Shown here piece by piece: positions 13,001-60,719 of a stretch of DNA of 64,000 bases; position 1 is the first letter of the stretch, and the number at the start of each line of letters is the position of its first letter. Under the pieces are notes generated by a model. It did no database searches and was not told the origin of the DNA. It saw nothing but the letters and a program-made list of their open reading frames with translations. A program made the position numbers and the translations under genes. Source of the stretch: Octopus vulgaris (taxonomy: Eukaryota); assembly GCA_951406725.2 (NCBI GenBank), contig OX597829.1:20088001-20152000 (forward strand), given 5' to 3'.

Positions 13001-16000
13001 TTTTCTTTTTTCCAGGTGTCTGATGGTGCCCTTCGATGTTTTGCATCCCTTGCAGATAGATTCACACGAAGAGGGGTTGATCCTGCTCCTCTAGCTCAAC
13101 ATGGATTAGTTGATGAGCTTTTAAATCGTCTGCAGGCTGCTGGTGAAGCTGTTCATGGAACATCAGCTGTTGGCCCTAGCACATCTGCTGGAGCAACTGC
13201 TCTTGTACCTGTTGATTCTAAATCCAGTGCAAGTGTTTCCACTGTCATTAGTTTATTGTCAACACTATGTCGAGGGAGTCCTTGTATTACCCATGATTTG
13301 TTAAGGTCTCATCTTTTAGAGGCAATTGAAAGTGGTCTTAAAGGCGATGAAAGGTTAGTTATGTTTTATTTTCTACATTTGAAGCGACCTTTTTTTAAAA
13401 TAAAATTTCAATAAGATTCACTTTATACAAAATAATAGATTTTTAGAAAAGTTTTCAAAATTTTTGATAATGCAGAGAAAGAATGCTTGACCTTTTTAGC
13501 ATTCAAATTATTAGGTCAATGGTTATGCTTTTCATTTGCATTGTTTTTAATTAAACCTTATTAGTGAACTTGGAAATCTGAAAGTAGCTTGCCATCTCTC
13601 TCATCTGTACAGATAAATAGATGTGCGTGTTTGTCTCCTTGTGTTGAGATTGAATGCTGGATATAAACAACTGTCACTGTCATACAAGTAGTGTTGTGAA
13701 ATCCTGCCCTGCCATTGTGTTGTTATTGTTTGACAGACAAGAGGAAATATTGCCTCACTCAGAAGCAGGTGAAGGTTAGCAACAGAAATAGAATACTGTT
13801 CTATATTTTTGAGATGAGGAATTCTGTACGTTATTTACATTGGACAAATATGTGTCCTCATCTTGTTTGTTGTTGCCACAACATTTCAGATGATTTACTC
13901 TCCAGCCTTCATCAGGTGTTCTGCTGGAATTTTGATCCCAACCCTGGGTTCTCATTTCTAAGGTAATAATAATTACATCAGCAAAAAAAATACCTTAGGA
14001 ATGAGAACCCAAAGTTGGGTTCAAAATTCTACCAGGACACCTGATGAACGCTGGAGAGTAAATCAGCCAAAATGTTGTGGTAACAACAAACAAGATGAGG
14101 ACACATGTCCGTCCAATGTAAATAATGTACAGAAATAGAATATTTGCCTCAATGAATTTCATCTGATCCATGCAGGCATGGAGTAGTGGATGTTAAACAA
14201 AAACTATTTTTATTTATGACAAATGCCCGATTTATTTTAAATATTGGGAGTAACAAATTGGCAGTCATTAAAACGGCAAACAAAATGCCTTGCAGGTGTC
14301 TGATGGTGCCCTTCGATGTTTTAACATCAGCTGAGAAGACAGCTAATTACTTAACTACTGAAATACTCAGTTTGTACTGGGATCAAGTTTGCACTTTGTC
14401 TTTCTGGAATCAATAAAGACCCAGTCTAGGGTAGTTGCTTAGCAGAATCATCAGTGTCACCTTTAGATTATTTTTCATTAAAGAATCAAATCCTTGTATA
14501 GTCCATTTTATTACAAGCATTTAAGCTGGATCTCGTGTTTAAGGAGATTCTACTAGATTTGGAGGCTCTGTAAACAGTCTACTACTTTTCTCGCTTGACT
14601 AAAAGATTAAAGATTTTCTTTGGTATTTTACTAAATATCTCCTGTCATTTGGAATTTTAAAATCTAATGTACATCCTCCAAACTAATTAAGATTTCTAAT
14701 TAGTAGTCTTCTCAGCTGATTTATTCTTTCACTTTATATTCCTCTTCTAATGGATCTTTCTGTGATTATTTCTAGTCACTATAGTTCTTTCATATTGTTG
14801 ATCATATCTGTCCAAAAGGTATATTTAATTTTAAATTACCGTCCCAATATGTCTGAAATCTTACGTTTGTTCATCTGTCTGTCTGTCTGTCTGTGCCAGT
14901 GGCATGTTAAAAACACCACTATGATCTGAGTAGTTGGCGTTAGGAAAAGCATCTAGCTGTATAAACTTTGCCAGTCCTCAATCAAACCATCCAAACCCGT
15001 GCCAGCATGGAAAGCGGACTTTAAACAATGATGGTGATGATGATGCTGGTGTGGTGAATATATTGTCATCTAAATTAAGCAAAAATGAAAATAACACTGA
15101 CATCTCATTTTAACAAATATATTTACCAAAATTACATAAAAATATCTTGAAATACTGAAGAGTAAATTTATTCAATAAAATCGCCATTGACTTTGACCAT
15201 GGCCTCCAGACGACTTTAGAATCTCCTGCAACTCTTCTGGACAGTCTCCTTGTTTAAGTTAGTGAATGCTGCCATCAGTTCATCTTTGGTGTTACAAGGA
15301 GTTTTGTTGGTCTCTTGCTCACATAATGATCAAGGGGGTTGCAGTTTGGGGAGTTAGGTGGTCAGATGTTAGGGGTGATGTGGTTGCAGTGATTATCTGA
15401 CTGGTTTCTCCTGCTTGTGTGGCATGATGCAGAGTCCTGTTACCAGACATAGGGTCTTTCAGCAGCCACCCACTTGACTCAGAATAGCATTACCTCCATC
15501 AGGCACTTGATGAAGGCCTCCATTTTGAGTCTGAAACCGTATAATGTCGCTATCACTAGTGATCACTCCAAACACTATGATGTCGACTGGATGTTTGATA
15601 TTTATCACTCTTAGTACATGTTTTGGAGACATGGCAAGCCAGCGGTTGTTCTGTGTGTTCACCATCTGTCCATATTGGAGCTTCTGGCACAAGCAGCCTG
15701 TCATTTCTAAATTTGTTGCAGATTAAATTGTGTCATAGTTCTGTTTTTCTCACAGACGGTGCCCAGCTGACCCTACTGTACTGTGTAGTTGACAAAATCA
15801 AAAACAAACAATGCTCATGCGCAAAAGGAAAAATATAAAATGGCAACAGTTTACCCATCACACACTGTGTGTATGTATACACACACATAATCCTCACTTA
15901 ATCATTTTAGATTATTCTGTCAGACATGATGCTCATTCGCATTATTTTGAATTAATCATACATTATCTTGTAGCTTTGAGATTTCACTGATGTGGTTGTT

Positions 16001-36441: not shown

Positions 36442-37639
36442 ATTTATGTATATATATATATATACACATACATATACCAAATTCATTTACTGGTTTTGTG
36501 ATGGTCCTTACTATGTTTGAATATTGTCTTTGGCTTCATAAATAAAAATGATTCCTATCAAGTTTCAACATTATCCTACTCTGAAAAGCCCATTATTTTG
36601 TGGAAATGCTCAAAATCATTTCTGCTGTAAATTTCATTGCAGACTTTAAAAACTAGTATGTTAGATTATAGATTTAAGACCAACATAGTAATCTTTACTA
36701 TGTCGTAAGTTTGTGTAAACTTGATGCCATCTTACATGTAACCTATTCTGTAGATATATAAGTAGGACAAATTATATAACTATCTCTCTGTAGATTGGAA
36801 AAAATGAACAGCCTTCATTAATTTTTGAACTTTATTGGGGTCTTATCAGAGGTGTTGACATCATTTGACTAACCCCTGAGAAATAATCAGCCAGTCTCTT
36901 TATATACTCAATGCATCCTCTGGCTTCAGAACTGCAGCAATTAATTTGCATACTTCAAATATTAAACAGTAATATCTGCAGGCTGTCTACAAGGATCTCA
37001 GTCCACACAGTATTAGGGTATGACATAGATTACATGTCGTACATATATAAACAGAGCAAATTTAACTATTTCTCTGTTGGTTATTCCTGTCCATTAAATT
37101 ACAGTACATACAAAATATGGGTCCCTGTTTTCCCTTGTGGTGGGGTAACAGATGTTTCTACAATTAACTTTGATGTCAAATGGTATCTCATATGTCTTGG
37201 TACAATTCAAACTGTATTTCATCCATTATAAATCTATTTACTTTGCAATAGTTCTATCATTTACCTGTTTCAGTCATTGGAGTACACCACTTGACAGGTT
37301 TAATCAACCTCAGTACTTGTTTTCCCAAAGCCTGGTATTTAGTTTAATTGCTCAGTTACAGAGATGTAAACTAACCAACACCAGCTGCCAAGCAGTATGG
37401 GAGGGGGGAGACACACGGACAACATATACTCTTTTTACTCTTTTACTTGTTTCAGTCATTTGACTGTGGCCATGCTGGAGCACCGCCTTTTTAATCGAGC
37501 AACTCGACCCCGGGACTTATTCTTTTGTAAGCCCAGTACTTATTCTATCGGTCTGTTTTGCCGAAACCGCTAAGTAACGGGGACATAAACACACCAGCAT
37601 CGGTTGTCAAGCAATGCTAGGGGGACAAACACACACACA

Positions 37640-50713: not shown

Positions 50714-53700
50714 TAAATATCTAGCCAAATATTTTAATATGGAGGCCAACTTTGCCTTTCATCCTTTCAGGCTTGATAAAATAAATACTGTTGAGCACTT
50801 GAGTTAATGTAATCAACTTACTCCTCCCCCCAAAATGCTGACCTTCTGCCAAAACTTGAAATCAATATTTATGGAATTGTTTCATACAGTATTTTAAATT
50901 TTGGCTCAAGGCCAGCAATTTCGGTGGGAGTGGGTAAGTCAATTACATCAACCTTAGTGTTCAACTGGTGCTGACCCTGAAAGGATAAAAGGCAAGGTTG
51001 ACCGTGGCAGAATTTGGACAAAAACGGACAAAATGCAGTTTCGCATTTTGCCCAGCATGCTAATGAGTCTACCTGCTTGCCACCTTGTTTTGTGCAATAT
51101 ACTGAATTAAATATAACAATTAATTTACCCTTATTCTCTAACTATGAGGTGACTCATGATAGCAAAAAATTTATAACACCTTGATAACTAGAAACCTCTT
51201 GCCAGAATAAAAAGTGCTGACATGAGGTATCTTATGTTTGTACACTTCCTTACAAAATTATATTTTCTATTGATTTGTGATTGATATTCATTATTTTTAA
51301 TTAGGTTCTGAAGATAGCTCAATACTTGAATTAAGCAATCAAGTCCCTCAGCCACGTCTTGCTCTCTTTCTAAAAGCACCAGCCACTACAGGGGTATGCA
51401 ACTTTTCTTAATACATTTTTCATAATTCTTTTGACGTTTTTCTATCCTTATGAAAAATGCCTTCAAATGCATAATACTTAGAAAATGGTAATAATTCCAA
51501 TTGACGGTCAGTAAAATAGCTTACGCGTGAAAATAAATTTTAGCAGAAACTTCATTTCAAAAGTTTGTTTCAAACTTGGTCTAAATATTACTTTTTTGCT
51601 AAAAAAAATTTTTTTTTTTTAGATGGATGAGATAGAAATTTATATGGGTGAAGAAAATGCATGCATCTTTAAATATGTCCAGCAATTGCGAGTGCAAGGT
51701 GGAAGTAATGGACGAAGTGAAAGATTGAAAAGAATATGGGAACCAACTTACATGTATGATTACAGAATTTTATTTTATCAAGATTTTTTAAAAATTTTCT
51801 TTTCTTAATTTTTCACTTGTAAAAATATAACAAAATATTGATCAGTGTTGAAGTTTTCAGTCCTTAAAACTACAGTCCTTGTCTTTATTTTTTAATATCA
51901 AAGACATTGTAATATTTATTGGTAACTATTCATTTATTTTGGTATTAAAGACATCTTTGGACACTTGATATTTTAAAAATATATCTTGCTGCTAGAATAT
52001 TTGAAAATAATCAGTTCGTATAGATTACTTACTCAATTACTTAGATAGTCAAGATTATAGATGTTTATAGAAATGATAAATGCATTTGCTTTTTCCAGAA
52101 TAACATACAGAGAATTGAAAGAAGGTGAATCCAAATCAGATTTATCAACTGTAAGTTGCTTTTTTAACTTTTGCAATGCAAAATTTGGTTTGAATTTAAT
52201 ATTTTAAGCTACCATTGCTTTCATGGGCATTTTCTGAGTCTGCAAACTAATTTCATTTTCTTTATAAAAGCATCCCAAAACTTTTGACATATCTACCATA
52301 ATGCTCTCCACCACTAACTTGATGCAGACATCATCTTTCCAATATAGAATAGCCACAGTCAATTTTCTCATCATGTCTTTCTTGGAAGTTGACAATGTTC
52401 TTCCAACTTAATTTTAATGCCTCCATTAAACATTAATGTATTTTACTGTATCCAAAATGCTACGTTTTATGCATTTATTCCCTATCCTCCAAACTGTTTT
52501 GTGAACACTTGTGCCATCTCTTATAAATATATATATCAGCATCATTTAACATCCATCTTCTATACATGTATGTGTATATATGGCCGATGCCAGTGTCATG
52601 TAACTGGTACATATAAAGCACCCTTCAAATTTTGGGCCTCATGGAGGCAATAAGTGACTGAGACCTTTGGCAATATGCTGTGCTTGAGAAAGACCTGTCA
52701 AGCCAAGTGAAATCATAGTTATGGCCAATGGTGGTCCATGTAACTGGCACCCATACCAGTGGCATGTAAAAAGCACCCATTATACTCTTGGAATGGTTGG
52801 AGTTAGGGAGGGCATCCAGCCAGCATGGACGATGGATGCTAAATGATAGATATATATATATATTACTGTAAATAAATAAAACATTGGGTGTATTTTTAAT
52901 ATTTCTTTTTAGGATTGCCAATCCAGTATAACATCATTGAATGAAAATTTCCCAATGTCAACACGACTTCTCAGCGAATGGGAATCTCCGTCTAATAATG
53001 ATCCAACTGCATGTACTGTGGATCATGTTCTTAGGTTATTACAATTGTGCCATGCAATATTTATTGATGGGACATCAAATTGTAATATCACAGGTAATTT
53101 TATTTTCTTAAACTCCAATATAATTTTGAGAACTAATAATTATTTCAAGTTCATTTACAAAATAACAAAAAAAATTTTTAATCAAGCTTGATATCTGCAC
53201 TTGCTCGGGCTTAATAGTAAAAATTAGTTTATAATTATACCATATGTTACATGTATATTATATCATACCTTGATACTGTGTGAGCTAAGATCCTTGTTGA
53301 CAGGCCGCTGGTATTTATAGTGTTAAACACTTTCGGTATGCAAATACTCATACATAGAGTAACTGTTGCATTTGTTGAGTATATAAATTGTTTGGCTGCT
53401 TGTTTCTCTAGAGACTGTAAGAATGAGGTGGGCGCCTTTGACGAGAACCCAATAAGGTTTGAAAATCGATTAAGGTTGTTCGTCGTTTTTTCAGCCAGCA
53501 GAGAAATAGCTAAAACTTATCCTGTTTATAATTAATCATACCATATATTACATTAATAATACTTTGACTTGCTATTAGTCATTGCCATTATGGGACCTTA
53601 AACAATAAGATTGATTTGATATTATTGTTTTACCTCATTAACTTCTTGAAGAATACAATTATAACTGTAAGTTGAACTTAAAAAAAGAATGCTAATTATA

Positions 53701-56700
53701 TAATGATTTTTTTTTTCCAGACCATATTTCTAAGGTTGACGTCCATCCAGAAGACTTTATTTCTAAGAAGCTCACTAATAAAGTGGGACAACAAATACAG
53801 GTAAGTTTCTATTATATTTTAAATTTGTTTTTCCTTTTTATGCTGATTTCTATTCTCAAAATACATGTATTTTGTATTAATATGGTTGATAATTGAGTTT
53901 AATACTTATAACTGTCACTATATTTGTTTTAAAATATAACATTCTCTCTTTACTTCATTGTAATAGTCTTGCTTAGTTTTGTTTATGTCTTGATAAGAAA
54001 AGGTTTTTTTTTTTTTTTGCATATTAAAACCTGTAATAAATCAAAATTATTATGCAATAGTAATCTTTTACAATTACTGCTGGAAACTATTTGAATTAGC
54101 TTTATTTCCATTTTGTGAAAGCAGTAAACATTTAAATATATATTAAAGACAATATTTATCTTATGAAAATATTTATAAAAGTTTTAAGGCAGGTGGGGAT
54201 TGCTTAATATTATCTAATATTTGATCTTTTTTTTTTTTTTTCTCTAAGGACCCACTAGTGTTAGCTAGCAATGCATTACCTGATTGGTGTGAACAGCTAA
54301 CAAAATGGTGCCCCATGCTCTTCCCATTTGAAACCAAGCAACTGTATTTCAGCTGCACAGCTTTTGGAACGTCAAGGTAAGAATTACTGCAAGAATATGA
54401 AAACTCTGGAGTTATGTAAACTTCTATTACACTCCCCCACTTTTTTTTTTTTCTGCTATGAGCTATGTTTATTTCATTCATTAATGAGTCTGTGCATCAA
54501 ATTTCTGAATTTTCCTTTTTATGTACTTCAGAGCTATTGTATGGTTACAAAATAAGAGAGATGCTGTTCTTGAAAGAAATAGAGGGCCAACACCAAGAAG
54601 GGATGATACACATGAATACCGAATAGGTCGACTAAAGCATGAGAGAGTCAAGGTTCCTCGTGGAGACCAGTTACTAGAATGGGCCCTTCAGGTTATGCGT
54701 TTCCATTCTCGCAGAAAATCCATTTTAGAAGTAAGTTGTTAGTTTTGGATTTTTCTAATCTCAGTTTATTATTTGCACTGGATGAAAACTAACGTCACTT
54801 CTTAAACTATTGTAGTGAGCTATTGAGATCTTGGTTACACACTGCTAGTCATAGACTATGAACTGTCAAAACTTTCTTGTAGGCTGATTACCTTATCTAC
54901 TTAGTTACATCTCTTATTGTTTGATTTTTATGATATGCATTATCTTTATACAATGCTTGCGCTTTTGCAGATTGAATTCATTGGGGAGGAAGGCACAGGA
55001 CTTGGACCTACACTTGAATTCTATGCTCTTATTGCTGCAGAATTGCAAAGGAAATCTCTTGGGCTTTGGTTGTGTGATGATGATATTGTTGACACTACTG
55101 AACGTGAGGTGAATAAATTTTTATTTTTCTAATTAATATATGATTAAATACGAAATCTTTTACACTTAGTTGGGGAAAAAAAAGAGAATTCAGAAAAATG
55201 CTAATGTGTCATGCTTTTAATATCCATTACTTTCATATATTCAACTTTTTTTAAATCTAAGTAAACCTTTTTTTAAGACTATGTAAATATTCTTTTATTA
55301 ATATTTTTTTAGGTTGATATTGGTCATGGTGTGAAAGCTCCTGGATATTATGTACAGCGTGCTGGTGGACTTTTTCCTGCACCAATTCCACAAGACAGTT
55401 CAGATTTAGAGAGAATAGAATCTCTGTTCTATTTTCTTGGAACACTCCTTGCAAAATGTATTCAAGATAATCGACTAATTGATTTACCATTGTCTAAGCC
55501 ATTTTTAAAAATGATGTGTTATGGTGGATCAGTTAGACAGACCAGTAAACACTGTTCATACATGCCTTCACAGCGTAATAGTAGCCCTTGTGAGTCATTT
55601 TGGACAAATGAAGATCTAATTTCAAGTAGTGAATATGTTGATAAAGAACTTATTCTTGATCCACCTAAAACATATCAAAATACTGGGCCACCTTGGTATG
55701 CTGGTATCTTAAAAGAAGAAGATTTTGCTCTTGTTGATCCCCACCGTGCATATTTTCTCAGCCAACTGAAGGAATTGAGTACCCGCAAACAAAATATATT
55801 AAAGAAACCAATATCAAAAGGTCAGAAAAATTTACTCATGCAGGACCTCAGAATTCCTCCCCCTTCTCCAGATTCAGAAAATGGTGTTCGCCTAGAAGAT
55901 CTTGGGTAATTATTATCACTTATTATTTTTTTTCCTTTCTTCAAATTTTCTTCTGTTTCTTGCCAAGTGTTTTCCATACACCTAAGGCAGAGAAGCTTGT
56001 ATGCATTCCCAAACTACACACGTAAATTCACAGGTAAAATATGTATTTAAAATATTAATAAGTAAATAAATTCATGAATGGATGTTGTTTTCACAGCAAT
56101 AATACTCTTCTCAGTACATGAGCCGTTCCAGTTAACACGATTTATTATTATTATTTGCCAAGGTTGATTTTTGCCTTTCACTCTTGTCAATCAAATAAAG
56201 TTGAGCACTGGAATCAATGAAATCAACTAGATCCCACCCCAAAATTTCAGGCCTTGTGCCTAAAGTAGCAAGGATTGGTTGTTGTTGTTGTTGAATTAAT
56301 GTTGGTTGAGTTTTTCCTATAAAAAAAATAAGCCTAATTAAAAATGGTGGTAAATACTTTTTCATTAGTCAGCTGCATTTCATTTCATTTCATTTGGATC
56401 TTTCATGTTATACACTGGCACAACATATTAATGAATTAGCATGTTGAAATTAGATAATTAGAAGCCTAAATGCCGTTTTCTTTGAGGATTGCTACATTGA
56501 TAACAATAATAATAATAATAGAAATAAGAATTAAGATTTGTTGACAAACTTATATCAGGACATAGCTACTAAAAATAATGTGGTATAAAGGTCAGTATTT
56601 CTACCACTATTTTAAAACATTTGATTTGATGTTTGCTCAATCTTTTTCTTCCTCTCTAACTTTTTTTTTTTTTTTTTTTTTTGCCAGCTTGACGTTCCAA

Positions 56701-57676
56701 TTCAATCCTTCATCCAGAGTTTATGGCTATACCTCAATTAATCTCCGCCCTGGAGGAGATGAACAGGTCAGTTGAAAACCGTATAAATACCAATTTAAGA
56801 CTGAAAGGAGAAACAGGTTCAATGAGTGGGCTCAAACCACTCATTGCCCAATGATTGATTAAAAATATAATTAATATTTCATAATCAGGCCTATTTTTCC
56901 TCTGGCATAAACTGATGCTTAAAATGTCGAATACAATTTATAAATGTTTTTGAATACTTTTTTTTTTTAAGCCTAAACAATCCAAGTTATGAAAAAATAA
57001 TTAATATGCATAGGCACCGGCATGGCTATGTGGTAATAAGCTTGCTTCCCAATTTCATGGTTCTGGGTTTAGTTCCACTGCGTGATACCTTGGGCAAGTG
57101 TCTTCTTCTATAGCCCTGGGCCAACCAACGACTTAAGAGTTGATTTGGTAGACAGAAACTGAAAGAAGCCCGTCATATACATATGTGTATATTTGTGTCT
57201 GCTTATCCCTCCAGCATCACTTGACAACCGACATTGGTGTGTTTACACCCCCATAACTTAACAGTTTGGCAAAGGAGCCTGATAGAATAAATACTAGGCT
57301 TACAAAGTCTTGTGGTCGATTTCTTTGGCTAAAATACCCTTAAAGGCAGTATTCCAGCATGGCTGCAATCAAATGACTGAAACCAGTAAAAGAATACAGG
57401 TCAATGGTTAGTGCTCTTACCTGATATTTCAATATTTCAGGATTGTCTGTGGAGAAAAGGCGTTCTTAACTGATGTCTCTCAGCTATTCATTTACTTGTT
57501 TCAGTCATTTGACTGCAGCCATGCTGGAGCACCACCTTTAGTCAAACAAATTGACCCCAGGACTTATTCTTTGTAAGCTTGGTACTTATTCTATTGATCT
57601 CTTTTGCAGAACCAAGTTACGGGGAGATAAACATACCAACATCGGTTGTCAGGGAATGGTGGGGGGACAAACATAT

Positions 57677-57766
<90 letters not shown>

Positions 57767-60719
57767 TGACAGGCTTCTTTCAGTTTCCTTCTACCAAATC
57801 CACTCACAAGGCTTTGGTTGACCCGAGGCTATAGTAGACATTTGCCCAAAGTGTCACGCAGTGGGGCTGAACCTGGAATCATGTGGTTGAGAAGTGAGCT
57901 TTTTGCCACACAGCAACGCCTGCGCCATTACCTTTTCTCTAGATTTCCAGGAGTCCTAACCCTCTAATATTGAAATATCAGGATTAATTTCTTTTTATGT
58001 ATAACTTATATTGTTTTAGCTTTATAAAAAGAAATATTTAAAACATACATATCAGACAAAGCTTCATGAAAACAATACTACTCTGTTAATATCATTTATT
58101 TAAAAAATATTAGAAGCTAATTCATAATTTAGTTCAAATACCTAAGAATTACCAACTGCTATATTTTTAATCAGTTTCATTGGTACTAAATGCCAATTTT
58201 ATTGATCTTGAATTTGAACTTGTAACATAAGTAACTTAACTAAATTCAGTTTACTTTCCATTCAGTGTCTTATTGTTTTTCATTCTAAATTTTAAAAAAG
58301 ACTGGAATTTTTGTAGTTTAATTATATTAATTTCTTTACTAAGTAGCATGATTGAGATCAATCATCAACAATTGGGATCAAAGCTAGATTTCGATCTGCT
58401 TACCATGAGCTTATTTCTTATCTGGAGACTCTTTTTAAGTTTTATTTTTTTTCCCTTTTTTTATTTTTCAGGAAGTCACATTAGATAATGTTGAAGAATA
58501 TGTGACCCTTGTAACTGATTTTTGTTTCAACACAGGAATTCAGCGACAGATGGAAGCCTTTAAAAGTAATTTGAAATATTCTAGTTTTTTTTTTTTTTTC
58601 TTTAAACCATACTAACATGGATTAGGCAAGACTTGGTGAAGTAATTTTTCTGTTGACTGTTGCTAGCTCTTATTTGTTTCCCTTACCTTTTAAATCACGA
58701 ACTGCTCAACATCTCGGCATGTTTTAGCAGTAAATATAATAATTGACAAAACACAGGAGTCTCTGTCCAATTTCCATCTATCAATTTCACATGCAAGACA
58801 TTGGTCAACCTTAGGTTTTATAAATATATGTGTGAGATGTATTGGTATCCAGAAGACCCAAGGTGGCAAGTAAGGCTATGTAGGGGCTACGGGAGAACCA
58901 TAGTTACTTCTCGGTTTGATAATAATGTGAGTGAGGAGTCTAATGTGTGTCTTGTGTGTGCATGTATATGTTAAATAAAATGAGACAACAAAACCAAGGC
59001 TGTGTGAATTTATAGGATATTTATAAAGAGAGAGTTAATCTTACAGCTGTTTCTGGGATATTATGGATATCCCTTTATCAGAGACAATATGAGAGAGTTA
59101 ACTAGAGGGAAATAGTTCAATATAAGGAGTTATATCGAACTCTACTATTTTTAATGGTCCTTTAAATTCCTCACAGCCTTGGTTTTGTTGTCTCATTTTC
59201 TTTAATTATATATATATATCATCATCATCGTTTAATGTCCGCTTTCCATGCTAGCATGGGTTGGACGGCTCAACTGGGGTCTGGGGAGCCCGAAGGCTGC
59301 ACCAGGCCAGTCAGATCTGGCAGTGTTTCTACAGCTGGATGCCCTTCCTAACGCCAACCACTCCAAGAGTGTAGTGGGTGATTTTATGTGCTACCGACAC
59401 AGGTGCCAGACGAAGCTGGCAATATAATATATATATATATATATATATATTGAAGCGAACTTCATAACTACAGCAAAATCTATACCACAAACAAAAATAA
59501 CTTTTTAATAGAATTGGTATTGATTTGTGTCCTAGTTTTTTTTATTCCATTATGATATGCATCAAGGCTGCTACACATGGACAAACCTGTATTAGATAGC
59601 ACACCTGTTGTTTATCTAAGCATATAAATGGCATAATTTATGATTAGTCTAGTACAGTTGTCCATCTCCTGAACCAAGAATGGAGATTGGCTCTCAGCCT
59701 GCTGGAAATTGATGCAAAGTTTCCTTCAAAACACATCCTGTCAACAGAGGAAGAACATGGGGGGGGGGCTGTGGTGCTAGATATCCATAAAAAAAAATTA
59801 CTCTCCCATTGTATCTACATAAACAGTTCAAAATACATTATTTTGCCAATCAAGGAATTGATTTTTTTTATATACTTTTGGCTAATTTGCCTTCCTAAAA
59901 TGTGATCTGGTCAAAATTTCTGGACACTAAAATAGATCAACTGCCATGGCTGCCTCTCAAATAGCTTCTACACATAGAGGGGGTACAGTGTAGTATGGTA
60001 CTATATTGATGAGTGTAGCATAATGAGTATATGTAAGAATTGACTTCCAAATGTTTGATCAAATATCTTTCTCATAGGTTGTTTTGTTGGAGCTAGTTGG
60101 TGCTCTGCAGTTATTTAATCCACACGTTTTTTTTAACCTAACAACTATTCAATTTTAGATGGATTTGATCTGGTTTTCTCTATGGAAAAATTATTATTCA
60201 ACCCTATGGAGTTGTCATCCTTACTTTGTGGTGACCAAGCACCAACATGGACAAAAGAAGATATACTAAATTACACAGAGCCAAAACTAGGCTATACAAA
60301 AGATAGGTCAGTTTTTTTTTTTTTTTCACATTTTTAATTTTTTACTTTCCCAATTTTATACATTTTAATTTAAACTATTGCATGTTTTAAATACAATTAC
60401 TTCCAATAGCTATTTTTTTTTTTCCTTTTTTTGTAGCCCTGGATTCCAAAGATTTATTAATGTCTTATTAATGCTGACGTCTGATGAAAGAAAATCATTC
60501 CTGCAGTTCACTACCGGTTGTTCTTCTTTGCCACCAGGTGGCTTGGCTAACCTGCATCCAAGGTTGACTGTTGTTCGTAAAGTAGATGGAAATGATAATA
60601 GTTATCCATCTGTGAATACGTGTGTCCATTATTTGAAATTACCAGAGTATTCTACAGAAGAAATATTAAAGGAACGTTTGCTGATAGCAACAAGAGAAAA
60701 GGGGTTCCACTTGAACTGA
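839..60719 (+). CDS. HECTD1: E3 ubiquitin-protein ligase HECTD1 (Ufd4-like), 5'-partial multi-exon gene; 43 coding exons traced
   Basis: Spliced translation gives [17 protein letters not shown]..., [21 protein letters not shown] (ankyrin), [17 protein letters not shown] (SUN-like), [17 protein letters not shown] (MIB/HERC2), [17 protein letters not shown] and [16 protein letters not shown]...GFHLN* (HECT with catalytic Cys). All introns are GT-AG and exon phases join in frame. The start-codon exon is not in the window. Confidence 0.97.
2279..2503. mobile_element. piggyBac-like MITE, same family
   Basis: TTAA-CCTTTAGCATT ... AATGCTAAAAGG-TTAA; further copies at 2842-3053 (opposite orientation) and about 15905-16071. 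Confidence 0.8.
3195..3551 (+). mobile_element. tRNA-derived octopus-type SINE (family A), diverged
   Basis: Head ATAGGTGCAGG..GCTGT, core CCTGGGCAAGT/GGATTTGGTAGA, tail GACT(C)AAACAAGTAAAA shared with other copies. Confidence 0.75.
4705..5092. repeat. Diverged ~225-bp direct duplication within a G/A-rich repeat
   Basis: GCAATGATACA..CAGGGCC..AGGACA.GATT.GGGAGTG..GCATAGTG.ATGAAG..GGAAAT.TGAGGAAGAGA..TGGTTTGTTG.GGTAG..GTGTGGGTGG.ACAC occurs at about 4706 and 4930. Confidence 0.7.
5363..5672 (-). mobile_element. SINE family A
   Basis: GTTTCAGTCATTTGACTGTGGCCATGCTGGAGCACC...CTTGCCCAAGGTGCC...CTTACCACACA. Confidence 0.8.
6559..7150 (+). mobile_element. SINE family A with a nested (CAT)-tailed SINE fragment (about 6720-6915)
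   Basis: Family A head and tail separated by a GGAAGAGCACCCAGCT...CCTATGCCACCATGG...AAACAATGAT segment. Confidence 0.7.
7559..7665 (+). pseudogene. Probable Helitron Rep/helicase remnant
   Basis: A frame reads [25 protein letters not shown], resembling the Helitron DDxHWDxTLEEA..xQxRxLFA segment (recalled); QGQ*LK follows in another frame. Confidence 0.4.
8580..8775 (+). mobile_element. SINE family B
   Basis: GGCAGAAACGTTAGC...GAGTTCAAATTC (B-box-like)...TTTCATCCTT..GGGTCAATAAATTAAGTAC...CCCCAAAATTTC; related copies at about 50740-50865 (+), 50895-51085 (-), 56160-56270 (+), 62960-63150 (-). Confidence 0.75.
10315..10638 (+). mobile_element. SINE family A
   Basis: GGCTGTGTGGTAAG...GGTTCAGTCC...TTGGGCAAGTGTCTTC...ATGACTGAAA. 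Confidence 0.8.
11277..11507 (+). CDS. HECTD1: HECTD1 exon 2, [10 protein letters not shown]...KHEDPF
   Basis: cttcag|GTG ... TTT|gtaagt; 231 nt, phase 0-0. Confidence 0.95.
11845..12063. mobile_element. Mariner-like MITE
   Basis: TA-flanked imperfect TIRs TATGAGGGGATGTTGAAAAGTT / AACTTTTCAGTGCCCCCTCATA. Confidence 0.7.
13016..13353 (+). CDS. HECTD1: HECTD1 exon 3, [16 protein letters not shown]...GDE(R)
   Basis: ttccag|GTG ... AG|gttagt. Confidence 0.95.
13822..14134. mobile_element. Foldback of two inverted ~145-bp Penelope-like terminal repeats, each with a degenerate hammerhead motif
   Basis: Arms 13822-13965 and 13991-14134 are near-reverse complements; CAC-CTGATGA-A-GGCTG..CAGCC-GAAA-(C/T)GTT-GTG consensus at 13877-13918 (-) and 14038-14079 (+); ACAGAAATAGAATA duplicated at 13782 and 14129. 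Confidence 0.7.
15046..15868 (-). pseudogene. Decayed Tc1/mariner-superfamily (maT/DD37D-like) transposon
   Basis: Minus-strand peptides [27 protein letters not shown] and [14 protein letters not shown] match the DDD-domain motifs (QDxAPxH, WPPxSPDLNP); contains stops and frameshifts. Confidence 0.8.
16626..16873 (+). CDS. HECTD1: HECTD1 exon 4, [25 protein letters not shown]...DALIEAVDN
   Basis: tttcag|A ... G|gtatac; phase-consistent with neighbours. Confidence 0.93.
17860..18197 (+). mobile_element. SINE family C ((GAT)n-tailed)
   Basis: GGCATTAGGAAGGGCATCCAGCTGTAGAAAC...CCAACCCATGCCAGCATGGAAAGCGGAC; related copies at about 3986-4250 (-), 14895-15045 (+), 52580-52845 (+), 59218-59420 (-). 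Confidence 0.75.
20300..20520 (-). mobile_element. SINE family D
   Basis: GGCTGGATGCCCTT...AAGGTA...GGAAGATTGGAAACAA shared with about 8790-8980, 35650-35880 and the host of the 13.8-kb foldback. Confidence 0.65.
22499..22575 (+). CDS. HECTD1: HECTD1 exon 5, ankyrin [25 protein letters not shown]
   Basis: ttctag|GT ... ATG|gtatgt. Confidence 0.95.
23168..23266 (+). CDS. HECTD1: HECTD1 exon 6, ankyrin [14 protein letters not shown]...FGRPQIVK
   Basis: tgctag|GTT ... AAG|gttatt; 99 nt. Confidence 0.95.
23432..23555 (+). CDS. HECTD1: HECTD1 exon 7, ankyrin [26 protein letters not shown]...LQSP
   Basis: atttag|ACT ... G|gtaaat. Confidence 0.95.
24564..24753 (+). CDS. HECTD1: HECTD1 exon 8, EWMVPV...[11 protein letters not shown]...ISV(R)
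   Basis: ttctag|GT ... AG|gtaatt. Confidence 0.93.
24867..25008 (+). CDS. HECTD1: HECTD1 exon 9, [13 protein letters not shown]...ATVLDNE
   Basis: cttaag|G ... GAA|gtaagt. Confidence 0.93.
25834..25989 (+). CDS. HECTD1: HECTD1 exon 10, [11 protein letters not shown]...HFARLG...KEK
   Basis: ttgtag|GAA ... AAG|gtttgt; 156 nt. Confidence 0.93.
26209..26437 (+). CDS. HECTD1: HECTD1 exon 11, [17 protein letters not shown]...[15 protein letters not shown]...SDSS
   Basis: tttcag|GAG ... G|gtaagg. Confidence 0.95.
26542..26717 (+). CDS. HECTD1: HECTD1 exon 12, [13 protein letters not shown]...IHNSDGQQ
   Basis: ctacag|AA ... CAG|gtaaat. Confidence 0.93.
27103..27270 (+). CDS. HECTD1: HECTD1 exon 13, [28 protein letters not shown]...RMK
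   Basis: aaacag|CAA ... AAA|gtaatt; 168 nt. Confidence 0.93.
27722..27859 (+). CDS. HECTD1: HECTD1 exon 14, [13 protein letters not shown]...PRSIVARIK...QIK
   Basis: ttttag|GTA ... AAA|gtaagt; 138 nt. Confidence 0.9.
27937..28156. mobile_element. piggyBac-like MITE (TTAA target site)
   Basis: TTAA-CCCTTTAACATT ... AATGTTAAAGGG-TTAA terminal inverted repeats; ~212 bp. Confidence 0.85.
28223..28369 (+). CDS. HECTD1: HECTD1 exon 15, SPTGEVEW...[24 protein letters not shown]
   Basis: ttttag|TCC ... AAT|gtaatt; 147 nt. Confidence 0.9.
29193..29281 (+). CDS. HECTD1: HECTD1 exon 16, NVEDMQ...[14 protein letters not shown](G)
   Basis: ttgcag|AAT ... GG|gtgagt. Confidence 0.9.
29419..29530 (+). 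CDS. HECTD1: HECTD1 exon 17, [23 protein letters not shown]...GYGLQ
   Basis: tttcag|A ... CAG|gtaagt. Confidence 0.93.
30232..30366 (+). CDS. HECTD1: HECTD1 exon 18, [13 protein letters not shown]...LKMEPL...YLLKM
   Basis: ttttag|ATC ... ATG|gtaaga. Confidence 0.95.
30548..30690 (+). CDS. HECTD1: HECTD1 exon 19, [10 protein letters not shown]...[15 protein letters not shown](K)
   Basis: ctttag|GTT ... AA|gtaatt. Confidence 0.95.
31047..31190 (+). CDS. HECTD1: HECTD1 exon 20, SUN-like [14 protein letters not shown]...NCHTNDD(K)
   Basis: atacag|A ... AA|gtaaat. Confidence 0.95.
31203..31562 (-). mobile_element. SINE family A
   Basis: Reverse complement of family A with an internal (CA)n tract. 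Confidence 0.85.
31739..31819 (+). CDS. HECTD1: HECTD1 exon 21, [26 protein letters not shown](R)
   Basis: ttgcag|G ... AG|gtgagt. Confidence 0.95.
32424..32522 (+). CDS. HECTD1: HECTD1 exon 22, [14 protein letters not shown]...SLNEP(G)
   Basis: ttttag|A ... GG|gtaaga. Confidence 0.95.
33178..33341 (+). CDS. HECTD1: HECTD1 exon 23, STASWPI...[20 protein letters not shown]...DDI
   Basis: ttttag|A ... G|gtaagt. Confidence 0.95.
33590..33766 (+). CDS. HECTD1: HECTD1 exon 24, [15 protein letters not shown]...[17 protein letters not shown]...ELHN (MIB/HERC2)
   Basis: cttaag|GC ... G|gttagt. Confidence 0.95.
34331..34512 (+). CDS. HECTD1: HECTD1 exon 25, [24 protein letters not shown]...; 3' end may instead be 34434 or 34506
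   Basis: atttag|GC; three in-frame donors (AAG|gtgaga at 34434, AAA|gtaaag at 34506, AAG|gtattt at 34512). Confidence 0.85.
34957..35082 (+). CDS. HECTD1: HECTD1 exon 26, [14 protein letters not shown]...[18 protein letters not shown]
   Basis: atccag|GTG ... AAT|gtaagt; 126 nt, phase 0-0. Confidence 0.85.
36067..36390 (+). mobile_element. SINE family A, preceded head-to-head by a minus-strand 5' half at about 35895-36040
   Basis: GGTTCTGGGTTCAGT...CACCTTGGGCAAGT...ATGACTGAAACAAGTAA. Confidence 0.8.
37428..37839 (-). mobile_element. SINE family A, young CpG-rich copy; flanked by older minus-strand pieces (37258-37420, 37866-37990)
   Basis: Full length, intact CpGs, (CTCTTTTA)n tail. Confidence 0.9.
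38176..38549. mobile_element. Two tandem copies of the piggyBac-like MITE
   Basis: TTAACCCTTTAGCATT start; the internal CCATATCC..CC..ATATTCTG..TGGCCAGATCCAG unit repeats at about 38200 and 38360; ends AATGCTAAAGGG. Confidence 0.8.
40216..40362 (+). CDS. Candidate alternative (cassette) exon of HECTD1, 49 aa [49 protein letters not shown]
   Basis: ttgttctctttattgttacag| acceptor, GGG|gtgagc donor, 147 nt stop-free, phase 0-0 as the host intron requires, higher GC than flanks. Confidence 0.55.
45878..46103 (+). CDS. HECTD1: HECTD1 exon 27, [14 protein letters not shown]...EKRR
   Basis: tttaaag|GCT ... G|gtaagc; open frame in a variable linker. Confidence 0.85.
46173..46663. mobile_element. 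Non-autonomous DNA element with long imperfect TIRs and an 8-bp TSD
   Basis: GGTGGAATTCTGATTCAAGTATGCCAT / ATGGTGTACTTAAAGCAGAATTCCACC; flanks TACAAATC and CACAAATC; subterminal GAATTTTCAGAAAATTTT / AAAATTTTCTGAAAATTC. Confidence 0.75.
46913..47209 (+). CDS. HECTD1: HECTD1 exon 28, ...[10 protein letters not shown]...MESFA...GLVRLA
   Basis: tataag|GT ... A|gtaagt; MSVSVPNL motif. Confidence 0.88.
47696..47979 (+). CDS. HECTD1: HECTD1 exon 29, [10 protein letters not shown]...[18 protein letters not shown]...acidic tract
   Basis: ctttag|GT ... ATG|gtgagc. Confidence 0.92.
48222..48610 (+). mobile_element. SINE family A, full length
   Basis: ATAGGAGTGGCTGTGTGGTAAGTAGCTTGCT...GGTTCAGTCC (A/B-box-like)...GACTGAAACAAGTAAAAGAGTA. 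Confidence 0.9.
48640..49186. mobile_element. pogo/Tigger-like non-autonomous element
   Basis: TA-CAGTAATAC ... GCATTACTG-TA termini. Confidence 0.5.
49306..49462 (+). CDS. HECTD1: HECTD1 exon 30, [36 protein letters not shown]
   Basis: ttacag|GAA ... G|gtatgt. Confidence 0.95.
49604..49830 (-). mobile_element. SINE family A, diverged
   Basis: TTTTACTTGTTTTAGTCATGCTGGAGCACC...GGGCTTCTTTCAGTTTC..ACCAAATCC. Confidence 0.7.
51305..51393 (+). CDS. HECTD1: HECTD1 exon 31, SEDSS...[15 protein letters not shown]
   Basis: aattag|GT ... GGG|gtatgc. Confidence 0.88.
51623..51753 (+). CDS. HECTD1: HECTD1 exon 32, ...IFKYVQQL...[10 protein letters not shown]
   Basis: ttttag|ATG ... AT|gtatga. Confidence 0.92.
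52099..52150 (+). CDS. HECTD1: HECTD1 exon 33, [17 protein letters not shown]
   Basis: ttccag|A ... ACT|gtaagt. Confidence 0.9.
52913..53093 (+). CDS. HECTD1: HECTD1 exon 34, DCQSS...[13 protein letters not shown]...NIT
   Basis: ttttag|GAT ... G|gtaatt. Confidence 0.9.
53435..53475 (+). ncRNA. Minimal type-I hammerhead ribozyme motif (Penelope-like-element type)
   Basis: CCT-TTGACGA-GAACC-caataa-GGTTT-GAAA-A-TCGA-T-TA-AGG: stems I/II/III pair, palindromic loop III, one core change (C3U). Confidence 0.7.
53721..53800 (+). CDS. HECTD1: HECTD1 exon 35, ...[18 protein letters not shown]
   Basis: ttccag|AC ... CAG|gtaagt. Confidence 0.93.
54249..54376 (+). CDS. HECTD1: HECTD1 exon 36, [17 protein letters not shown]...[17 protein letters not shown](R)
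   Basis: tctaag|GAC ... AG|gtaaga. Confidence 0.95.
54532..54730 (+). CDS. HECTD1: HECTD1 exon 37, AIVWLQNKR...[12 protein letters not shown]...KSILE
   Basis: cttcag|A ... GAA|gtaagt. Confidence 0.95.
54971..55108 (+). CDS. HECTD1: HECTD1 exon 38, [22 protein letters not shown]...ERE
   Basis: ttgcag|ATT ... GAG|gtgaat. Confidence 0.95.
55313..55905 (+). CDS. HECTD1: HECTD1 exon 39, [18 protein letters not shown]...[15 protein letters not shown]...LEDL(G)
   Basis: ttttag|GTT ... GG|gtaatt; 593 nt open frame. Confidence 0.95.
56688..56766 (+). CDS. HECTD1: HECTD1 exon 40, [14 protein letters not shown]...PGGDEQ
   Basis: tgccag|C ... CAG|gtcagt. Confidence 0.94.
57010..57395 (+). mobile_element. 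SINE family A, full length
   Basis: Same head, core and tail as 48222-48610. Confidence 0.88.
57491..57926 (-). mobile_element. SINE family A, full length, inverted relative to 57010-57395
   Basis: Reverse complement of family A with an internal (TA)n(CA)n tract. Confidence 0.88.
57680..57765. repeat. (TA)n(CA)n microsatellite; other (TA)n tracts at about 10450, 18215, 32580, 36392, 50668, 59428
   Basis: Direct reading. Confidence 0.95.
58472..58565 (+). CDS. HECTD1: HECTD1 exon 41, [11 protein letters not shown]...[10 protein letters not shown]
   Basis: tttcag|GAA ... A|gtaatt. Confidence 0.94.
58971..59205 (-). mobile_element. Inverted-repeat-bounded Penelope-like element fragment carrying a hammerhead motif
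   Basis: ~45-bp inverted repeats at 58971-59017 and 59158-59205; the minus strand of 59039-59084 reads TCT-CTGATAA-A-GGGATAT-ccata-ATATCCC-A-GAAAC-AGCT-GTA-AGA. Confidence 0.65.
60159..60306 (+). CDS. HECTD1: HECTD1 exon 42, [11 protein letters not shown]...LCGDQ...[11 protein letters not shown](S)
   Basis: ttttag|AT ... AG|gtcagt. Confidence 0.94.
60437..60719 (+). CDS. HECTD1: HECTD1 last coding exon 43, HECT C-lobe with catalytic Cys ([14 protein letters not shown]) ending GFHLN*
   Basis: ttgtag|C; stop TGA at 60717-60719. Confidence 0.96.

Follow-up and report, generated by a model that had tools for sequence, protein, structure and literature searches.

Metazoan non-LTR retrozymes are described as non-autonomous derivatives of Penelope-like elements (PMC7229834; bioRxiv 10.64898/2026.07.22.740005). 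In Xenopus, retrozymes occur as dispersed monomers with 42-44% intronic copies, and cleavage was reported for one of nine dimers tested (bioRxiv 10.64898/2026.07.22.740005). The octopus repeat analysed here resembles this group in being a non-coding unit within the range of 150-450 bp that carries one type I hammerhead (Cervera and de la Pena 2020, PMC7229834), and in its low GC content, its head-to-tail units in part of the insertions and a copy number probably in the thousands (PMC7229834; Li et al. 2026, bioRxiv 10.64898/2026.07.22.740005). Further similarities are the co-occurrence with Penelope-like elements and the dispersed monomers and intronic copies described there. In contrast to non-LTR retrozymes, the octopus copies mostly comprise less than two units and have a fixed 3' end at microsatellites, the family showed no target duplication above chance and no long arrays in the loci examined, and all copies examined were old, with a median of 6.3% off the column majority.

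Hammerheads in the pLTRs of the Neptune clade (PMC4209133; PMC8557442) share with the octopus unit the partial tandem arrangement, the 5' truncation, the microsatellite targets, a short palindromic stem III that needs a dimer, and a ribozyme located about 70-80 nt before the 3' end. The octopus unit differs from the Neptune elements in having no RT or GIY-YIG coding region and, unlike the minimal hammerheads of Penelope-like elements, its stem II has 5 bp and lacks the extra unpaired base typical there; no sequence match was obtained between the unit and the pLTRs of the Penelope families of this genome that were examined. The amphibian satellite-2 and axolotl retrozymes and the SINE-like hammerheads of Schistosoma (PMC7229834; PMC6765202) are similar in unit size (about 330 bp), in the weak stem III with a palindromic tetraloop and in poor monomer but better dimer cleavage, a likeness that for the octopus motif is one of predicted folding. 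Those elements form transcribed arrays whose cleavage was demonstrated, whereas the motif studied here is a single decayed copy in an intron of a HECTD1-like gene. Amniotes have ultraconserved intronic hammerheads that are single-copy and conserved, in the genes RECK and C10orf118. The octopus motif is comparable to them as a sense-strand hammerhead in the intron of a conserved gene (PMC6765202), but its core is mutated, it belongs to a repeat family, and no extra conservation was seen. Judged from its sequence, the HECTD1-intron copy is likely a decayed passenger of the non-LTR retrozyme type in an ordinary locus, which matters little in itself, as the expected footprint of a retrozyme-type repeat.

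The hammerhead motif and its host intron

The preliminary description had placed the motif in a 627-nt intron of a HECTD1 gene, and the analysis of the 64-kb window (the whole stretch of 64,000 nucleotides) confirmed this intron, with GT..AG ends and a preserved reading frame (Table 1). RNA of two organisms shows removal of the intron at the expected sites: 14 raw RNA reads from organism E contain the splice joint, and so does a 7.2-kb contig presumed to come from an RNA run of organism A. The host gene contains MIB_HERC2 and HECT exons, with Pfam matches for three of the ten exon frames scanned. The PDB matches of the MIB-HERC2 exon were to HECTD1 only and, since the last HECT exon was closest to TRIP12 among solved structures, the HECTD1 name rests on the MIB-HERC2 match and the domain order. 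An ESM Atlas search with one exon of the host gene gave no match. Other introns of the gene contain many SINE-like repeats and large inverted repeats, at window positions 13822-14134 and 57007-57926.

Table 1. Positions of the features in the window, with the basis of each assignment
Feature	Position	Strand	Basis or remark
HECTD1-like exon before the intron	52913-53093	+	Frame runs on into next exon; RNA reads and contig
GT..AG intron hosting the element, 627 nt	53094-53720	+	Frame and RNA joint
HECTD1-like exon after the intron	53721-53800	+	Frame and RNA coverage
Possible 9-bp target duplication with 53553-53561, one mismatch	53211-53219	+	Not above chance
5'-truncated partial unit, last 25 nt	53227-53251	+	Identical (100%) to positions 281-305 in the unit of a natural copy
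Full ~305-bp unit, younger subfamily	53252-53552	+	8.3% off column majority
Octamer-like motif, candidate part of internal promoter	53338-53345	+	26/30 younger, 15/21 older copies
TATA-like motif, candidate, just upstream of hairpin	53380-53387	+	24/30 younger, 12/21 older copies
Predicted long hairpin extending stem I	53400-53509	+	Fold prediction; weakened in the HECTD1-intron copy
Type I hammerhead motif	53435-53475	+	U3-G8 core; predicted cut after 53472
Unit 3' end with 4-nt insertion	53524-53552	+	Fixed 3' end in 94/123 family insertions
Second, older family copy in the same gene, antisense	36757-37037	-	68% identity; broken core

All of the hammerhead elements claimed for the motif were found in place. 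Stem I is formed by CCT (53435-53437) and AGG (53473-53475), the core by TTGACGA (53438-53444) and GAAA (53461-53464), and stem II by GAACC/GGTTT with the loop CAATAA (53445-53460), while the palindrome AATCGATT (53464-53471) lies in the 2-bp stem III and its loop and overlaps the last A of GAAA. The predicted cleavage triplet is UUA, with the scissile bond following 53472. The layout is that of type I, with three stems round the core and stem I open-ended, and the HECTD1-intron copy keeps the palindrome and all ten modelled pairs, each of which can form. Its core departs from the canonical type I core (C3UGANGA/GAAA/UH) by U3 against G8, whereas the family has the canonical C3 in 75 of 84 copies. 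The family majority has C at both 53438 and 53460; the closing pair 10.1-11.1 of stem II, G-C in that majority, is G-U in the HECTD1-intron copy.

Both strands of the window were scanned with a type I descriptor in which position 3 could be U or C, and the single match was the motif itself; no second sense copy of the motif occurs in the window, and the descriptor missed the antisense copy, which is located in another HECTD1 intron and resembles an older subfamily. That the motif is a chance match in an AT-rich intron has practically no probability. Such a match would agree with the hammerhead model search, in which Rfam gave no hammerhead match for 52000-55000 at E ≤ 10, and with the 51-nt motif alone, which folds no better than shuffles (z -0.85). 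Against it, 100 dinucleotide shuffles yielded 0.03 descriptor matches per window and none (0/100) with a palindromic stem III, and the core of the family gave 188 exact matches in the genome. The chance reading is already refuted by these results, and the motif in the HECTD1 intron is real but mutated. The earlier description of a minimal hammerhead with stem I CCT/AGG can be refined: CCT/AGG is not a minimal stem of 3 bp but the top of a predicted hairpin of about 110 nt, and the fold z for 53400-53510 was -2.6.

A dispersed family of 305-bp units

Further analyses revealed that the motif belongs to an old copy of a dispersed non-coding repeat of about 305 bp, and the presence of this common repeat in the intron is why a mutated hammerhead is found there. 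The direct repeats reported at 53227-53252 and 53524-53553 do exist, but they do not bound an insert: each is a copy of the 3' end of the unit itself, in a partial tandem of a 25-nt partial unit and one full unit (1.08 units). Compared to the first repeat, 4 nt are inserted in the second and one letter is changed. They are neither target duplications nor LTRs but the 3' end of the unit seen twice, given that the family has a fixed 3' end and insertions longer than one unit. Two ribozymes in tandem are absent from the HECTD1-intron copy. The two long terminal repeats, type III hammerheads and 4-bp duplication of LTR retrozymes were not found either; the bounding repeats have 25-29 nt, with a length that varies among copies, and the ribozyme is of type I and internal. 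A 305-bp non-coding unit with a type I hammerhead in many copies corresponds instead to a non-LTR retrozyme. The two candidate promoter motifs of the unit (Table 1) are what we take to be octamer-like and TATA-like sequences.

The whole-genome search with the insert returned 1813 candidates in the 2.8-Gb genome, of which 40 scored matches besides itself had 81-87% identity, and the search with a second natural copy returned 2125 candidates. A 28-letter core pattern gave 188 exact matches, as compared to none for the reversed-pattern controls. Since this pattern was matched by only 10 of the 30 top copies, the copies of the family must number several hundred or more, probably thousands. An older subfamily was represented by 924 candidates (70-86% identity), and the majority letters of its catalytic core are the same, apart from CpG-type changes. 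The other copies keep the core, GAAA and the stem pairing, so the refutation proposed in the preliminary description did not occur; the family, in which that description had proposed to look for tandem copies of about 300 bp, is dispersed as monomers to about 2-mers and not arranged as a long tandem array. Between the subfamilies, one pair of the hairpin is altered on both sides (C-G to U-A), and in a few more pairs a one-sided change preserves the pairing; as a single event, this compensatory change would give the hairpin modest support.

The structure of the insertions was determined in 123 independent cases from about 150 loci, after duplicates and six members of a composite repeat were dropped. 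Most of them (94/123) have their 3' end at unit position ≥290, and a dinucleotide microsatellite follows within 30 nt in 65 of the 94, compared to a background of about 7%. The 5' ends scatter over the unit, with variable truncation. More than one unit was present in 38 of the 123 insertions and two ribozyme-spanning units in 13; long copies are over-represented in these counts, since part of the set had been selected by similarity over the full length. No long arrays were found in the loci examined. Target-site duplication was rejected as evidence, because 12 of 82 copies matched compared to 10% of controls, which is not above chance, and so was a pile-up of 5' ends at the cleavage site, where only one of 38 upstream partial units starts.

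Adjacent units shared 12 rare variants in 2479 columns (20 loci), which is 2.4 times the value for random partners (p = 0.0015), 9 of the 12 coming from 3 of the 20 loci; overall, adjacent units differed like random copies (12.9% vs 13.5%). The shared variants fit a copying of both units from one template, which could be a circle or a homogenised tandem, and a circular template has been proposed for such copying (PMC4209133). The insertions longer than one unit, the fixed 3' end and the shared rare variants form a usable genomic test set for whether Penelope-type enzymes use circular RNA cut by ribozymes as their template, as has been proposed, and a comparison of sense with antisense intronic family copies could measure the harm of the ribozyme to host genes. 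In the articles searched, no prior description of the 305-bp family was found, and the main text of one repeat-annotation paper on an octopus has no mention of hammerhead, ribozyme or retrozyme; the family is possibly undescribed.

Seven copies with a shared long 5' flank were considered as an autonomous parent and rejected, since they represent one truncated copy inside a larger repeat without an ORF; six of the seven were left out of the counts. This carrier repeat of about 1.8 kb (L094, L096, L097, L105, L112, L138 and L142, about 1-1790) has an inverted-repeat-like 5' end and is probably a non-autonomous DNA transposon that amplified the copy. In six other loci (L091, L111, L117, L163, L166 and L171), the same other short repeat interrupts the T run just after the ribozyme, which suggests that it prefers T-rich targets. 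At L106 (1500-1575), local amplification of the part of the ribozyme comprising stems II and III has produced a short tandem repeat.

Decay of the copy and sequencing reads

Of 278 well-defined columns, 23 (8.3%) have a letter in the HECTD1-intron copy other than that of the majority, and the copy also has indels; the family median is 6.3% and the minimum 2.9% (n = 97). Position 3 was C in 75, T in 6, A in 2 and G in 1 of the 84 independent copies, which were obtained from 90 pattern-picked loci by removing six non-independent rows, all with C (81/90 before removal). A C3U change, which places U3 against G8, causes a large defect. The preliminary description considered that this change might be what makes the ribozyme tolerable. 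Two results speak against a special role: C3U occurs in 6 of 84 copies (7%), as expected from the family non-CpG C>T rate of 6.9%, and looks like ordinary decay, and the monomer is predicted to be inactive with or without C3U. The active monomer fold lies 9.7 kcal/mol above the ensemble (family median gap 10.0) with a stem III probability of 0.00, and the 8-nt palindrome gave -6.1 as duplex and +5.1 as hairpin, which favours the duplex; for the single motif, no active fold is predicted in the monomer. In 47 rows selected by other means than the core, the 12 core columns were 94.7% conserved compared to 93.4% for the 282 others (p = 0.27); the core is thus no better kept than the rest, indicating that copies decay without protection of the ribozyme. 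RNA editing before insertion was discarded, as sense-strand A>G (2.5%) and T>C (2.7%) showed no bias.

Reads of four runs out of 24 were aligned at 88% likeness. Both junctions of the insert were crossed by DNA contigs of organism E (52900-53267 and 53505-53850), which do not resolve its middle, and the presence of these junctions indicates that the insertion predates the split from organism E. At 53438, C was found in about 97-98% of the DNA contig depth and in 5/5 RNA reads, all attributable to family copies. The DNA depth over parts of the element reached about 1,100-1,200 times that of the flanks in two runs, a value that is not a true copy number. Among the differences listed in relation to organism E, 4 fell in 90 nt of the 3' part of the element and 2 in 50 nt of the flank. 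The RNA reads aligned were 117, or 6% of one run, and came from a different organism. No pile-up of read ends at 53472/53473 was observed among RNA molecules, with low power and a library type poor for cleavage ends. The cleavage site was crossed uncut by 12 reads, which are probably duplicates of one fragment (53464-53603) and possibly DNA. Family-like reads were present at low depth in one raw RNA run, where circles are indistinguishable from tandem transcripts.

Origin of the insertion and alternative explanations

Penelope-like elements whose GIY-YIG domain is C-terminal are present in the genome, and some have intact frames of 781 aa; a cysteine motif before the nuclease, of the kind described for Neptune (PMC8557442), points to the Neptune clade. 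These elements end at (TA)n with the same TA microhomology as the family, their terminal repeat runs on into the TA run as the 305-bp unit does, and hammerhead-like motifs are present near their 3' end, one with a U3-A8 core. The layout of the family is that of a Penelope derivative, with partial tandems, 5' truncation, a fixed 3' end, a microsatellite target and no clear duplication. No autonomous element sharing the unit was found in 58 Penelope-like regions (30+12+16, partly overlapping) drawn from 148 scored of 6136 GIY-YIG candidates, and an ORF with RT and GIY-YIG, as in autonomous Penelope elements, was neither in the unit nor attached upstream, where about 150 family loci contained no coding remnant. 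Three Penelope ORF remnants near family copies were rejected as partner, being separate insertions. As no partner sharing the unit was found, dependence on Neptune-type enzymes is proposed by analogy, and Neptune-type Penelope elements likely mobilised the family.

The HECTD1-intron copy is very probably a decayed copy of the abundant 305-bp repeat, likely pasted by Penelope-like enzymes and likely inert today. The analysis agrees with the earlier claim that the unit is retrozyme-like and of Penelope type and that its hammerhead, of the dimer type, lies on the pre-mRNA strand of the HECTD1 intron; the persistence of the copy in at least two organisms stands against an inert passenger. When the family was active, a tandem source would have been transcribed from a putative internal octamer/TATA-like promoter, and pairing of the 8-nt palindromes would have joined two hammerheads into a dimer able to cut, freeing a unit-length RNA that was possibly circularised. 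A Neptune-type GIY-YIG endonuclease may then have nicked a TA-rich target, where the TA-rich unit end would prime reverse transcription at one fixed point, and copying would halt at random, often beyond one unit. The HECTD1 intron would have received 1.08 units, which subsequently drifted, C3U being one among 23 counted substitutions, plus indels. With 1.08 units, the copy has one ribozyme and no upstream promoter copy, and cannot release a monomer.

The unit could also be a solo pLTR that an autonomous, now extinct Penelope element left behind in 5'-truncated insertions, and not a separately propagating element. This origin is unlikely: most pattern-picked copies are indeed below one unit and 5'-truncated, and Penelope insertions are typically truncated partial tandems (PMC8557442), but the copies that pass unit position 1 enter another unit (38 cases) and, as reported above, no coding remnant lies directly upstream of the family copies, the three nearby ORF remnants being separate insertions. 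It is, in any case, compatible with an inert locus. Very unlikely is a harmful insertion of an active ribozyme with C3U selected to silence it, for which the natural covariation of the C3-G8 core pair to U3-A8 (PMC3088659) and the under-representation of retrozymes in Xenopus introns (bioRxiv 10.64898/2026.07.22.740005) could be cited; the frequency of C3U equals the neutral C>T rate and, because the monomer is predicted to be inactive even with C3, no silencing change would be needed.

Even harder to sustain is a co-option in which the U3-G8 ribozyme slowly cuts HECTD1 pre-mRNA as a dimer and tunes its expression, the partner being a further HECTD1 transcript or RNA of other copies of the family. 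All stems and the palindrome are intact in this copy, whereas C3, stem I, palindrome and cut site are kept together in only 23 of 84 pattern-picked copies; the insertion is common to organism E, amniotes have hammerheads in introns (PMC6765202), and a natural core that has identical U3..C7-G8 letters and 2 nt inserted has been cited as a possibly regulatory variant (PMC7151607). On the other hand, C3U and the G-U pair in stem II weaken the core, trans dimers of nascent RNA would presumably be rare, cleavage by Penelope-type hammerheads is poor even when they are intact and does not occur in single motifs (PMC4209133), the listed differences from organism E are about equally dense in the 3' part of the element and in the flank, and the cleavage site showed no pile-up of read ends, at the low power mentioned. 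A domesticated slow switch, which would cut HECTD1 pre-mRNA only when palindrome-paired with other family RNA, is scarcely credible; if true, repeat transcription would be coupled to the level of a ubiquitin ligase.

Other observations concern the Penelope-like loci of this genome. L181 (5217-5672 and 430-885), L182 (5378-5425) and L183 contain a young Neptune-type element with the 781-aa frame and an upstream frame, whose terminal repeats are 99% identical and carry a hammerhead-like motif with a U3-A8 core and a palindromic stem III, about 70 nt before the (TA)n-joined 3' end. At L239 (2155-2200), a truncated Penelope fragment belonging to a second family is immediately preceded by another hammerhead motif, whose core is canonical, whose stem II is different and whose palindrome has 8 nt. 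In L182 (5532-5954), an inverted-repeat element of about 420 bp that directly follows the Penelope 3' end carries a hammerhead-like motif on the minus strand, and another such motif occurs in L184 near 6714. In L194, an intronless frame with a poly(A) tail, presumably resembling ribosomal protein L32, is located between a family copy and a Penelope remnant and is likely a processed pseudogene.
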